NCBI RefSeq assembly: GCF_003334765.1
Contig: NZ_QOWT01000021.1
From: Escherichia coli
GTDB lineage: Bacteria > Pseudomonadota > Gammaproteobacteria > Enterobacterales > Enterobacteriaceae
Strand: one strand, 5' to 3'
Length of the DNA: 64,000 bases
The position numbers were made by a program, and so were the translations under genes. How positions within the stretch are numbered: the stretch's first letter is position 1; every line of letters begins with the position of its first letter. Positions 60,438-64,000 of this stretch are shown in pieces. Under the pieces are notes generated by a model. That model ran no database searches and was not told the origin of the DNA. It saw only the letters and a program-made list of their open reading frames with translations.

Positions 60438-61053
60438 GATTTACTAAAGGCTGCAACTGCTTCGCCATCCAGTCGGCAATAAACGGCTGGGCGTCGCGGT
60501 TGGGATGAATACCGTCATCCTGCATCCATTGTGGCTTGAGGTAGACCTCTTCCATAAAAAAGGGCAGCAGCGGAACATCAAACTCTTTGGCGAGTTTGGG
60601 GTAAATGGCGCTAAAGGCTTCATTATAACGGCGACCATAGTTTGCAGGCAGACGTATTTGCATTAACAATGGTTCAGCGTTGGCGGCTTTGACATCCTGC
60701 AAAATCTGGCGCAGCGTTTGCTCGGTTTGCTGTGGCTGAAAACCACGCAAACCGTCATTGCCGCCCAGTTCAACCAGCACCCAACGCGGCTGATGCTGTT
60801 TCAGCAGAGCCGGAAGGCGCGCCAGTCCTTGTTGCGAGGTGTCGCCGCTGATGCTGGCATTAACTACCGACGTTTTACTCTGCCACTTATCATTCAACAA
60901 GGCAGGCCAGGCCGCGCTGGCAGACATTCGATACCCGGCGCTCAGGCTATCACCCAGAATCAATAACGTGTCCGCTGCGGCGGCACGGAAGGTTAACAGG
61001 ACCAGGAACAGGAAGGGCAAATGCCAGCGGAAAACATTGTTGAAGTTCATCAT
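60427..61053 (-). CDS. tesA: Periplasmic acyl-CoA thioesterase I / protease I / lysophospholipase L1, SGNH hydrolase (208 aa)
   Basis: Start set at ATG 61051-61053 (MMNFNNVFRWHLPFLFLVL); GDSLS catalytic motif. Confidence 0.96.
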   Translation of the reverse strand: MMNFNNVFRWHLPFLFLVLLTFRAAAADTLLILGDSLSAGYRMSASAAWPALLNDKWQSKTSVVNASISGDTSQQGLARLPALLKQHQPRWVLVELGGNDGLRGFQPQQTEQTLRQILQDVKAANAEPLLMQIRLPANYGRRYNEAFSAIYPKLAKEFDVPLLPFFMEEVYLKPQWMQDDGIHPNRDAQPFIADWMAKQLQPLVNHDS

Positions 61054-61707
61054 CTTAAGAAGTCCGTCGGTCAGGGGGAGCATGAACTCTCCATCCTCAC
61101 CGGAGTTGAGCTGGTTGTCAAACGTGGCGAGACCATCGCACTGGTGGGCGAGTCGGGATCGGGTAAGTCAACCTTGCTGGCGATCCTCGCCGGGCTTGAT
61201 GACGGCAGCAGTGGCGAAGTGAGTCTGGTGGGACAACCGCTACATAATATGGACGAAGAAGCGCGGGCAAAGTTGCGCGCGAAGCACGTCGGCTTTGTTT
61301 TTCAGTCATTTATGTTAATTCCTACCCTTAACGCGCTGGAAAACGTCGAGCTTCCGGCTCTGCTGCGCGGTGAGAGTAGCGCGGAAAGTCGTAACGGGGC
61401 GAAAGCGTTGCTCGAACAGTTAGGGCTGGGTAAACGTCTGGATCATCTTCCGGCACAGCTTTCCGGCGGTGAACAGCAACGAGTGGCGCTGGCACGAGCC
61501 TTTAATGGTCGACCTGATGTGCTGTTTGCCGACGAACCCACCGGCAACCTTGACCGCCAGACGGGCGATAAAATTGCCGACCTGCTGTTTTCCCTCAACC
61601 GTGAACATGGCACCACGTTGATTATGGTGACCCACGACCTGCAACTGGCGGCACGCTGCGACCGCTGCTTACGGCTGGTGAACGGGCAGTTGCAGGAGGA
61701 AGCATGA
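61021..61707 (+). CDS. ybbA: ABC transporter ATP-binding protein YbbA (228 aa)
   Basis: Walker A GESGSGKST, signature LSGGEQQR; MacB/LolD-like NBD. Confidence 0.95.
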   Translation: MPAENIVEVHHLKKSVGQGEHELSILTGVELVVKRGETIALVGESGSGKSTLLAILAGLDDGSSGEVSLVGQPLHNMDEEARAKLRAKHVGFVFQSFMLIPTLNALENVELPALLRGESSAESRNGAKALLEQLGLGKRLDHLPAQLSGGEQQRVALARAFNGRPDVLFADEPTGNLDRQTGDKIADLLFSLNREHGTTLIMVTHDLQLAARCDRCLRLVNGQLQEEA

Positions 61708-64000
61708 TTGCACGTTGGTTCTGGCGCGAATGGCGTTCGCCGTCGCTATTAATTGTCTGGCTGGCGCTAAGCCTGGCGGTGGCCTGCGTGCTGGCGCTGG
61801 GCAATATCAGCGATCGCATGGAGAAGGGCTTAAGCCAGCAAAGCCGTGAGTTTATGGCGGGCGATCGGGCGTTGCGCAGTTCACGCGAAGTGCCGCAAGC
61901 GTGGCTGGAGGAAGCGCAAAAGCGCGGCCTGAAAGTCGGCAAGCAGCTGACTTTCGCCACAATGACCTTTGCAGGCGACACACCGCAGCTGGCGAACGTC
62001 AAAGCGGTGGATGATATCTACCCGATGTATGGCGATCTGCAAACTAATCCCCCTGGCCTGAAACCGCAGGCGGGCAGCGTATTGCTGGCCCCACGCCTGA
62101 TGGCACTGCTTAACCTGAAAACGGGCGACACCATTGACGTGGGCGATGCCACCTTGCGGATTGCCGGAGAAGTGATTCAGGAACCGGATTCCGGTTTTAA
62201 CCCCTTCCAGATGGCTCCGCGTCTGATGATGAATCTGGCGGATGTCGATAAAACCGGAGCCGTGCAGCCGGGGAGTCGGGTCACCTGGCGTTATAAATTC
62301 GGCGGCAACGAGAACCAGCTCGACGGCTATGAGAAATGGTTGTTACCTCAGCTTAAACCCGAACAACGCTGGTACGGTCTGGAACAGGACGAAGGCGCGC
62401 TGGGGCGATCGATGGAACGCTCGCAACAGTTCCTGCTGCTTTCGGCGCTTCTGACCTTGCTGCTGGCAGTGGCAGCGGTGGCGGTAGCGATGAATCATTA
62501 CTGTCGCAGTCGCTACGATCTGGTGGCGATCCTCAAAACGCTGGGGGCAGGGCGAGCGCAACTGCGTAAGCTAATCGTCGGTCAGTGGTTGATGGTGCTG
62601 ACGCTTTCAGCCGTTACCGGTGGGGCCATAGGCCTGTTGTTCGAAAACGTGTTGATGGTGCTGCTCAAGCCCGTTCTGCCTGCTGCACTACCGCCAGCCA
62701 GCCTCTGGCCGTGGCTGTGGGCGCTTGGCACCATGACGGTCATCTCGCTGCTGGTGGGGCTACGACCATATCGCTTGTTGCTGGCAACGCAGCCTTTACG
62801 CGTATTACGTAATGATGTGGTAGCGAACGTCTGGCCGCTGAAGTTTTATCTGCCGATTGTCAGTGTGGTGGTTGTGCTGCTGCTCGCCGGATTAATGGGT
62901 GGCAGCATGCTGCTTTGGGCGGTGCTGGCGGGCGCGGTAGTACTGGCTTTGCTGTGCGGTGTGCTGGGCTGGATGCTGCTGAATGTACTTCGCCGCATGA
63001 CGCTGAAATCGCTGCCTCTGCGCCTGGCGGTTAGCCGCCTGTTACGTCAGCCGTGGTCAACGTTAAGTCAGCTTTCGGCATTTTCGCTCTCCTTTATGCT
63101 GCTGGCACTGCTGCTGGTGTTGCGTGGCGATCTGCTCGACCGCTGGCAGCAGCAGCTACCTCCAGAAAGCCCGAACTACTTTTTAATTAACATCGCCACA
63201 GAACAGGTAGCACCGCTAAAAGCGTTCCTCGCGGAACATCAGATAGTCCCGGAATCGTTTTATCCGGTGGTGCGGGCGCGGCTGACGGCGATTAACGATA
63301 AGCCGACAGAAGGTAATGAAGATGAGGCGCTTAACCGCGAACTCAATCTTACCTGGCAAAATACGCGGCCCGATCATAATCCGATTGTCGCCGGTAACTG
63401 GCCGCCAAAAGCCGATGAAGTGTCGATGGAAGAGGGGCTGGCGAAACGCTTAAACGTTGCCCTCGGTGATACCGTGACTTTTATGGGCGATACCCAGGAG
63501 TTCCGCGCTAAAGTGACCAGCCTGCGCAAAGTGGACTGGGAAAGTCTGCGGCCTAATTTCTATTTTATTTTCCCTGAAGGGGCATTAGACGGGCAACCGC
63601 AGAGCTGGCTTACCAGTTTCCGCTGGGAGAATGGCAACGGCATGTTGACACAACTCAACCGCCAGTTCCCGACCATTAGCCTGTTAGATATTGGCGCGAT
63701 TTTAAAACAGGTCGGTCAGGTGCTGGAGCAGGTAAGTCGGGCGCTGGAAGTGATGGTGGTACTGGTCACCGCCTGCGGTATGTTGCTGTTGCTGGCACAG
63801 GTGCAGGTGGGAATGCGTCAGCGTCATCAGGAGCTGGTGGTGTGGCGCACACTCGGTGCGGGGAAAAAACTGCTGCGTACCACGTTGTGGTGTGAGTTCG
63901 CCATGCTTGGGTTTGTTTCCGGCCTGGTGGCCGCAATTGGTGCGGAAACGGCGCTGGCAGTGTTGCAGGCGAAAGTGTTTGATTTTCCGTGGGAGCCAGA
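61703..64000 (+). CDS. ybbP: FtsX/MacB-family ABC permease YbbP, 5' part only (766 codons in window; runs off the end)
   Basis: Not in the ORF track (no stop inside the window). ATG 61703 overlaps the ybbA stop; MIARWFWREWRSPSLLIVWLALSLAV...; open frame to position 64000. Confidence 0.9.

Follow-up and report, generated by a model that had tools for sequence, protein, structure and literature searches.

The window analysed here, a 64,000-nt stretch of Escherichia coli DNA, contains the genes tesA and ybbA and most of ybbP (Table 1). This is the ordinary K-12 ybbA-ybbP locus: positions 60400-64000 match E. coli K-12 MG1655 with 100% identity and occur in 5419 of the 5426 complete E. coli genomes. 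Given this identity and distribution, and since both products pass the cut-offs of their own NCBIfam equivalogs, ybbA and ybbP are not a chance pair of open reading frames. YbbA scores 479 bits against NF007879 (cut-off 336), YbbP scores 1458 bits against NF041854 (cut-off 999), and TesA reaches 410 bits against its equivalog (cut-off 270). An Rfam search of 58000-64000 returned no family. The composition profile within the genes is unremarkable, the only exception being an AT-rich spacer before rhsD, outside the window.

Table 1. Features of the tesA-ybbA-ybbP region, with positions numbered along the window.
Feature	Residues	Positions	Strand	Basis
tesA, periplasmic GDSL/SGNH esterase (thioesterase I, lysophospholipase L1), YbbAP partner		60427..61050	-	RefSeq
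tesA (-)/ybbA (+) head-to-head 5′ coding overlap, 30 nt		61021..61050	.	RefSeq and sequence
ybbA, ABC ATPase subunit, 228 aa		61021..61707	+	ATG-started ORF, TGA stop 61705-61707
YbbA Walker A, GESGSGKS	43-50	61147-61170		
YbbA signature, LSGGE	147-151	61459-61473		
YbbA Walker B, VLFADE	167-172	61519-61536		
YbbA H-switch, VTHD	203-206			
Translational-coupling junction		61694..61707	+	AGGAGG 61694-61699, 4-nt spacer, ATGA 61704-61707
ybbP, fused double FtsX-type permease		61704..64000	+	Translation without stop; cut by window end
YbbP periplasmic domain 1, TM1-TM2	~34-242	61803..62429	+	Hydropathy: 211-residue loop 32-242
YbbP first FtsX domain, TM2-TM4 and first cytoplasmic coupling loop	247-363	62442..62792	+	Pfam PF02687 E 4.1e-13, hydropathy peaks
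YbbP linker helices TM5-TM6, between duplicated halves	~381-421	62844..62966	+	Hydropathy peaks 381-397, 402-418
YbbP periplasmic domain 2, TM7-TM8	~474-680	63123..63743	+	Hydropathy: 207-residue loop
YbbP second FtsX domain, cut by window end	683-762	63750..64000	+	Pfam PF02687 E 2.2e-7, model positions 2-85 of 120 only

By its sequence, YbbA is an ATPase of the LolD/MacB clade in which all four catalytic motifs (Walker A, signature, Walker B, and H) are intact. A comparison with PDB sequences finds it identical to 9ge6_B, and its nearest solved relatives other than itself are LolD (E~1e-54), the MacB ATPase domain, MJ0796, and BceA, the LolD and MacB matches spanning E 1e-54 to 1e-50. After its own equivalog, the next-best NCBIfam models are LolD, MacB, DevA, and FtsE.

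The ybbP frame runs to the window end without a stop, giving 765 complete codons (61704-63998) and 2 nt. According to the K-12 RefSeq record, in which positions 7305-9719 (record L001) correspond to window positions 61704-64118, the full-length protein has 804 aa and the gene would end at 64118, so that 39 C-terminal residues, TM10 among them, lie beyond the window. The part within it is identical to residues 1-765 of K-12 YbbP and to PDB 9ge6_A. Hydropathy indicates about 10 TM helices, with two large periplasmic loops of ~210 residues each between them, and the two PF02687 domains provide the FtsX units expected of a type VII ABC transporter permease. The N-terminal and C-terminal halves align with 26% identity over 216 residues (E 9e-4), reflecting an internal duplication, and TM5-TM6 act as the linker (PMC12646458).

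The ancestry of the periplasmic domains is far less apparent from sequence. The Pfam MacB_PCD profile detects neither of them, a sequence profile of domain 1 retrieves YbbP alone from the PDB sequences, with no MacB or LolC and a non-significant HrtB match (E=1), and hhalign aligns domains 1 and 2 only over a 42-column motif at 44% probability. The kinship of the two domains with each other and with MacB and LolC is therefore visible only through fold and flanking TM segments. AlphaFold2 models of domain 1 (residues 36-240, pLDDT 92.6) and domain 2 (residues 476-678, pLDDT 92.8) were compared as whole domains, and the non-self fold matches of both models were type VII periplasmic domains only. 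Domain 1 matches 9ge7_A (TM 0.94) and then the periplasmic domains of LolE, LolC, MacB, HrtB, YknZ, and BceB (E 1e-8 to 1e-4), while domain 2 matches 9ge6_A (TM 0.94) and then those of LolE, MacB, BceB, and LolC (E 3e-6 to 1e-3). As predicted by these models, and by fold only, both periplasmic domains of YbbP are of the LolC/LolE/MacB type.

The two genes meet in the sequence ...GGAGGAAGC-ATGA-TT, which places the ybbP ATG at 61704-61706 and gives a 4-nt overlap (ATGA, 61704-61707), the same ybbP start being annotated in RefSeq. Among 10 distant loci, the 4-nt overlap is called in five, and in the rest the genes lie 2 to 56 nt apart or overlap by 23 nt. Transcript levels of ybbA and ybbP also co-vary in one published data set. 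Co-expression of the pair is supported by the ATGA overlap, the AGGAGG 4 nt upstream of the ATG, the tight coupling in the 10 distant loci, and the co-varying transcripts.

An earlier note on this DNA had described YbbA as a MacB/LolD-like ATPase encoded from 61021 to a TGA at 61705-61707, and YbbP as a large FtsX-family permease of about 804 aa, the whole resembling MacB and LolCDE in architecture. Each of these statements is borne out, and the ATPase relatives, FtsX domains, and fold matches show that family and mechanism class were rightly named. The note would have given up its reading had YbbP lacked MacB-like periplasmic domains or had the pair not been co-expressed; both loops fold like LolC/LolE/MacB domains, and the evidence above favours co-expression. 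Three details need correction, as the note placed the ybbP ATG at 61703, gave the overlap as 5 nt, and allotted 766 codons to the window, one more than are complete. It also left tesA unconnected to ybbAP, even though tesA overlaps ybbA head-to-head inside the window.

A divergent module of GDSL hydrolase, ABC ATPase, and permease is found in all 10 distant homologous loci, each with a TesA homologue (36-89% identity) directly upstream of and divergent from ybbA, at YbbP identities of 30-88%; the other neighbours vary among most of these loci. Of the 30 nt in which the two 5′ coding ends overlap, 29 are identical in Salmonella. The overlap measures 30-39 nt in Enterobacterales, and in four loci outside this order the two start codons either touch or have a CATG palindrome in common. 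Most loci, across distant Gammaproteobacteria, have essentially no intergenic DNA between tesA and ybbA, a point that seems not to have been described. Without a spacer, each promoter and 5′ UTR must lie inside the opposite gene, and the two mRNAs would be complementary at their 5′ ends. We tentatively suggest, while considering it rather unlikely, that the overlap is a conserved regulatory device setting the ratio of hydrolase to transporter, either by transcriptional interference or by excludon-like antisense pairing of the 5′ ends. In a consensus scan covering tesA, ybbA, and ybbP, no sigma-70-like site turned up close to the divergent starts, and terminator-like matches in the same region are at chance level (6 versus 5.5 expected).

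Conservation within YbbP was measured across 141 homologues from a representative library, the top 120 relatives listed elsewhere all being at least 87% identical. Mean identity is 0.34-0.40 in the periplasmic domains, with domain 2 the best-conserved part of the protein (0.40), and is lowest in TM5-6 (0.19). The majority of invariant residues also fall in the periplasmic domains, including P107, G147, G190/S191/R192, R526, S574, R608, W612, and N618/F619, which offer pointers for mutagenesis. This distribution fits a specific and conserved periplasmic role for YbbP. Residues with proposed functions are conserved to differing degrees: at R239, the proposed ligand of the lipid phosphate, 125 of 142 sequences carry R or K, the second proposed phosphate-gripping arginine, R235, lacks conservation (27 of 142 have R), and the acidic character of the TesA contacts D145 and D148 is only partly retained. 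One homologue, P0264, is labelled as a Flavobacteriales metagenome-assembled genome, which is probably a binning error: its gene context of pepP, ygfB, zapA, and ygfA matches that of another of the loci compared (L008), and this gene order is one that we take to be gammaproteobacterial. Because of this, an extension of the family to Bacteroidota is not claimed.

The earlier note also called ybbAP uncharacterised, which is out of date, the locus having been correctly observed but already known. Cryo-EM structures of YbbA2-YbbP-TesA (PDB 9GE6, 9GE7, and 9GE8) have established the partner, the stoichiometry, and an ATP-driven conformational change, and have led to a proposed function (McAndrew et al., PLoS Biol 2025; PMC12646458). 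The same study already addressed topology, deletion phenotypes, and co-evolution with periplasmic partners, the checks that the note had proposed. The proteins of the window are those of the solved complex, TesA being identical to chain T of 9GE8 and only the last 39 ybbP codons being absent. In the complex, two YbbA subunits sit on the cytoplasmic face of a single YbbP, whose 10 TM helices comprise two duplicated 4-TM FtsX units, each with a MacB/LolC-like periplasmic domain, and two linker helices (PMC12646458). Upon ATP binding, the YbbA dimer closes, the periplasmic stalk helices zip together, and a hydrophobic TM6/TM9 pocket beside the outer leaflet shuts (PMC12646458). Apo and AMP-PNP structures thus describe mechanotransmission, in which no pore opens and nothing passes through the membrane (PMC12646458). 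The complex shows esterase and thioesterase activity, and molecular dynamics, the only evidence for lipid entry, has lysoPG entering the YbbP pocket (PMC12646458). The mechanism derives from published cryo-EM and co-purification, whereas the present analysis confirms identity, fold, and gene linkage.

Our favoured interpretation, which we consider probable, is that the locus, the K-12 ybbA-ybbP operon together with tesA, encodes a machine for ATP-driven transfer of membrane lipid to TesA, with lysolipid clearance or recycling as its likely role. ATP-driven closure would push a lipid from the YbbP pocket up into the TesA active site, TesA would then hydrolyse the delivered lipid, and ATP hydrolysis would reset YbbAP-TesA. 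The physiological role would most likely be to clear or recycle membrane-damaging lysolipids, candidate roles being lysophospholipid detoxification after phospholipase attack or Lnt activity. The linkage of tesA in all 10 loci and the strongly conserved periplasmic domains back the published YbbAP-TesA model. In Erwinia, copper shock induces ybbP along with spy, which suggests a link to envelope stress. Lipid extraction is opposed by the observations that ATP does not stimulate TesA esterase activity on soluble substrates and that free TesA is indistinguishable from the complex in its substrate profile (PMC12646458). The absence of a distinctive phenotype after ybbAP deletion (PMC12646458) and the uneven conservation of R235, D145, and D148 in the 142 sequences also count against the proposal. 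As the earlier note held, no physiological substrate has been proven (PMC12646458).

The shared substrate profile, together with the status of lipid extraction as a proposal, lends some weight to a different interpretation, in which YbbAP tethers or regulates TesA at the membrane, its ATP cycle gating or orienting the active site without substrate extraction. FtsEX-EnvC offers a model for this, as FtsEX is a type VII system governing a periplasmic hydrolase pathway, and the YbbAP-TesA complex is stable with or without nucleotide (PMC12646458). However, TesA is fully active alone and is unaffected by ATP in the complex, so activation by YbbAP is not needed (PMC12646458). In the nucleotide-free structure, moreover, a hydrophobic pocket that opens and closes faces the lipid, and the active site of TesA looks onto a cavity that runs on into the periplasmic domains of YbbP (PMC12646458). 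In our estimation a tethering or regulatory role of this kind is unlikely.

Similarly improbable, to about the same degree, is that the mechanism is as described but acts on something other than lysophospholipid. Candidates would be acyl-CoA or acyl-thioesters partitioned into the membrane, lipids that are damaged or mis-acylated, and hydrophobic esters of xenobiotic origin. TesA is both esterase and thioesterase, with a broad spectrum that takes in acyl-CoA, p-nitrophenyl esters, and nitrocefin (PMC12646458), and since it acts on acyl-CoA and aryl esters, its natural substrate could be another compound. The poor conservation of R235 points the same way, as does the co-transcription of tesA in Enterobacterales with ybbO, which encodes an NADP+-dependent aldehyde reductase. 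However, acyl-CoA belongs to the cytoplasm and TesA to the periplasm, linkage of ybbO is confined to the two enterobacterial loci and is not seen in the other eight, and no beta-lactam resistance phenotype was found (PMC12646458). That YbbAP is a MacB-like pump for efflux or export of a periplasmic or membrane substrate by way of an adaptor and TolC, or else a module for sensing and resistance like BceAB, is highly improbable. The superfamily fold is common to all of them, the 10-TM topology is shared with BceB, and an RND pump and adaptor gene lie downstream in L008. However, this sole RND/MFP pair is encoded on the other strand, no adaptor (MFP) gene or two-component system is kept beside the module in the 10 loci, YbbA falls below the MacB (205 versus 966 bits) and LolD (254 versus 307.75) cut-offs, and the conserved partner is TesA, with no antibiotic phenotype found (PMC12646458).

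With FtsX units in its permease, periplasmic domains of MacB/LolC fold, and an ATPase of the LolD/MacB/FtsE clade, ybbAP has the three type VII features that were tested, and it can be compared with four other systems of this kind. LolCDE is likewise type VII, LolD is the closest solved ATPase, and for both YbbP periplasmic domains the best fold matches are those of LolE and LolC. However, LolC and LolE are distinct proteins of 4 TM helices each, where YbbP has its 10 in one chain, and the partner of LolCDE is the chaperone LolA, bound in another mode, rather than an enzyme such as TesA. LolCDE is also essential, whereas deletion of ybbAP has no distinctive phenotype. Membership in LolCDE was rejected on the single fused permease gene and on the YbbA scores of 254 against 307.75 bits (TIGR02211) and 221 against 360 bits (NF008639).

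MacB shares with YbbAP the FtsX-type TM unit, the ATPase clade, and mechanotransmission, and its periplasmic domain matches by fold at E 1e-8 to 1e-5. This domain consists of Porter and Sabre subdomains, as the type VII periplasmic domain is described (PMC12646458). The Pfam MacB_PCD profile misses the YbbP domains. In contrast to YbbAP, MacB has its ATPase fused to the permease, forms a homodimer, and requires MacA and TolC. MacAB-TolC membership was rejected on the separate genes, the single 10-TM permease, the YbbA score of 205 against 966 bits, and the lack of a conserved adaptor gene in the 10 loci.

BceAB(-BceS) of Firmicutes resembles YbbAP in its single-chain 10-TM permease with two FtsX units and two linker helices, its separate ATPase, and a similarly positioned lipid-binding site. 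However, BceB has one extracytoplasmic domain (TM7-TM8) where YbbP has two, and the partner of BceAB is a membrane histidine kinase instead of a periplasmic esterase. The two large periplasmic domains of YbbP, and the absence of a kinase/regulator pair kept beside the module in the 10 loci, led to rejection of BceAB-type membership. FtsEX-EnvC is also type VII and works with a periplasmic hydrolase pathway, but FtsX, with 4 TM helices, forms a homodimer and has a smaller periplasmic domain. FtsEX relies on EnvC to activate amidases, an indirect route, whereas TesA binds YbbAP directly and needs no activation. Beside these systems, the 2025 structures show the MacB fold put to a new use, in which an ABC motor is coupled to a captive lipid hydrolase.

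The ATPase and permease encoded by ybbA and ybbP, termed uncharacterised in an earlier note, have since been described together with their structures and periplasmic partner (McAndrew et al., PLoS Biol 2025, PMC12646458; preprint May 2025). An in-silico pulldown with AlphaFold, together with gene neighbourhood and co-evolution, identified TesA as the partner, and the complex was co-purified (PMC12646458). Cryo-EM of apo YbbAP, AMP-PNP-bound YbbAP, and YbbAP-TesA (PDB 9GE6/7/8) has demonstrated the fold of the complex and its stoichiometry of two YbbA to one YbbP to one TesA; within it, YbbP has 10 TM helices, and its pair of Porter+Sabre periplasmic domains share ~26% identity (PMC12646458). 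The periplasmic conformational change is driven by ATP: once it binds, the ATPase dimer closes, the stalk helices come together in a bundle, and a hydrophobic TM6/TM9 pocket on the periplasmic side shuts, without formation of a transmembrane pore (PMC12646458). TesA, a demonstrated hydrolase, faces a cavity above YbbP with its active site (PMC12646458). In PDB searches, the YbbP, YbbA, and TesA of the window were found to be the deposited chains.

The gene pair is confirmed by an ORF and an open frame in the window and by the K-12 match, with the coordinates first assigned to it off by one. The junction, read from the window as GCAGGAGGAAGC-ATGA-TT, forms a classic ATGA overlap (see table) rather than a 5-nt overlap with the ybbP ATG at 61703, and 765 rather than 766 complete ybbP codons lie inside the window. 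The expected length of about 804 aa agrees with the K-12 record, in which ybbP has 804 codons; in window numbering the gene would end at 64118. Positions 60400-64000 match E. coli K-12 MG1655 at 100% identity, and 5419 of 5426 complete E. coli genomes have this stretch, annotated as tesA, ybbA, ybbP. One 1037-aa single-member gene call (P0002), which combines ABC_tran with FtsX domains and matches YbbP at 100% identity, resembles a YbbA-YbbP fusion and most likely reflects a 1-nt indel or assembly error at the ATGA junction.

Coordinates and motifs of the ybbA-ybbP region
Feature	Position	Strand	Detail
266-aa ORF	58647-59447	+	antisense to cnoX
cnoX (ybbN)	58713-59603	-	
ybbO, NADP+-dependent aldehyde reductase	59628-60437	-	11-nt overlap with tesA 3′ end (60427-60437)
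tesA/ybbA head-to-head overlap	61021-61050	tesA -, ybbA +	30 nt
ybbA ORF	61021..61707	+	ATG start, 228 aa
ybbP ATG; ybbA TGA	61704-61706; 61705-61707	+	4-nt ATGA overlap
ybbP reading frame	61704 to window end	+	no stop in window
YbbA Walker A	residues 43-50		GESGSGKS, intact
YbbA signature	from residue 147		LSGGE, intact
YbbA Walker B	residues 167-172		VLFADE, intact
YbbA H-switch			intact

Co-expression of the two genes is supported by the ATGA overlap, by an AGGAGG located 4 nt 5′ of the ybbP ATG, and by a scan between the genes that predicted no promoter and no terminators above chance. Ten distant loci repeat the tight ATPase-to-permease order, five of them with a 4-nt overlap; (ybbAP) is entered as a single transcription unit in a promoter survey, and ybbA and ybbP vary together in an O157 transcriptome.

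YbbA scores 479 bits with the NCBIfam YbbA equivalog, above the cut-off of 336, and stays under the LolD, MacB, and FtsE cut-offs; its closest solved relatives besides itself are LolD (E~1e-54), the MacB ATPase domain, MJ0796, and BceA. YbbP likewise exceeds the threshold of its own equivalog (1458 bits, cut-off 999) and contains two Pfam FtsX domains. Hydropathy predicts ~10 TM helices, along with two loops of ~210 residues each (residues 32-242 and 474-680), with the short positively charged loops on the opposite side. Its N-terminal and C-terminal halves share 26% identity across 216 residues (E 9e-4), and YbbP is a 4-TM unit duplicated within one chain, with two linker helices added.

The MacB-like nature of the periplasmic domains is invisible by sequence and becomes clear in the modelled fold. 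Pfam MacB_PCD was not detected in YbbP, a first-loop profile built from 35 sequences matched only YbbP itself among PDB sequences, and profile-profile comparison of the two loops yielded a short motif and nothing more. AF2 models of residues 36-240 and 476-678 (pLDDT 92.6 and 92.8) both match the experimental YbbP structure at TM 0.94. Further matches of both are essentially only to periplasmic domains of type VII ABC transporters (LolE, LolC, MacB, HrtB, YknZ, BceB), with E 1e-8 to 1e-3, TM-scores of 0.4-0.6, and 10-17% sequence identity. By fold, YbbP thus does have MacB-like periplasmic domains, and its earlier assignment to the MacB/FtsX family stands.

The YbbP family comprises 2604 clusters at 50% identity (E<=1e-30), with full-length relatives of 800-860 aa at 30-54% identity. 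Gene linkage was sampled at 10 loci (YbbP identity 30-88%), from named sources including Salmonella, Ferrimonas, and Colwellia and otherwise from metagenomic contigs; Aeromonas also has a named homologue, outside these 10 loci. At all 10, the gene directly upstream of that for the YbbA homologue, transcribed from the other strand, encodes a TesA homologue (36-89% identity, Pfam Lipase_GDSL_2), and the remaining neighbours vary among most loci. Among 141 full-length homologues with E. coli as reference, the periplasmic domains are the best-conserved regions (mean identity 0.34 and 0.40; TM5-6 linker, 0.19) and hold most invariant residues (P107, G147, G190/S191, R526, G564, S574, R608, W612, N618/F619). 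Of the residues with a published contact role, R239 is kept as R or K in 125 of 142 sequences, R235 shows no conservation, and the TesA-contacting D145 and D148 keep their acidic character only partly. Linkage and conservation support the published TesA partnership and a specific conserved periplasmic function. One homologue (P0264, locus L012) is labelled as a Flavobacteriales MAG; this label is probably a binning error, since its gene context (pepP, ygfB, zapA, ygfA) is that of locus L008 and looks gammaproteobacterial.

A minor point is the conserved zero-spacer divergent geometry, compared over eleven loci including E. coli. The tesA/ybbA overlap is 30 nt in E. coli and Salmonella (L002), which have 29 of these 30 nt in common, and 33-39 nt in L003; the genes abut exactly in L005, have their two start codons joined in one shared CATG in L009, L010, and L011, lie 31 to about 120 nt apart in L007, L008, and L012, and are ambiguous in L004. 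With intergenic DNA absent in seven of the eleven, the promoter of each gene must sit inside its partner in most loci; the published account states only that the operons overlap partially (PMC12646458).

Several observations concern the surroundings. In-frame tesA ATGs lie on the minus strand at 61050 (RefSeq start), 61053, and 61083, the last preceded by GGAGAG; Salmonella retains those at 61050 and 61083 and has lost 61053. A perfect TTGACA (minus strand, 61122-61117) followed by a weak -10 was seen by eye and was unreported by the promoter scan. ybbO, placed with tesA in one putative operon (PMC12646458), accompanies the module in the two enterobacterial loci only (L002, L003) and is unlinked in the other eight. 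The Arg/Gln-rich ORF antisense to cnoX looks like a mechanical shadow ORF rather than a gene. Just past the window end, a terminator-like hairpin lies 14 nt beyond the ybbP stop, ahead of a 430-nt AT-rich ybbP-rhsD spacer (31-38% GC; 9720-10149 of the K-12 record L001), in which a published survey placed an H-NS-associated constitutive promoter for rhsD.

We consider it probable that YbbAP captures a lysophospholipid-like substrate, which would enter the TM6/TM9 pocket from the outer leaflet and be delivered by ATP-driven closure to TesA, probably for detoxification or recycling. ATP does not stimulate the esterase activity of the complex, free TesA and the complex have a common substrate profile, ybbAP deletion is without phenotype, and simulation is the sole basis for lipid entry into the pocket (PMC12646458), limits that the accompanying Primer restates; no later paper establishing the substrate was found in the literature. 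Alternatively, YbbAP may tether or regulate TesA without extraction, which seems unlikely. That the same machine handles a substrate other than a lysophospholipid is given equally little weight. MacB-like efflux or BceAB-like sensing, despite the shared fold, is very improbable given that no adaptor or two-component genes are conserved at the 10 loci. The gene pair is already known: it is well annotated in E. coli, and its structure, its partner, and a probable function have been in print since 2025.
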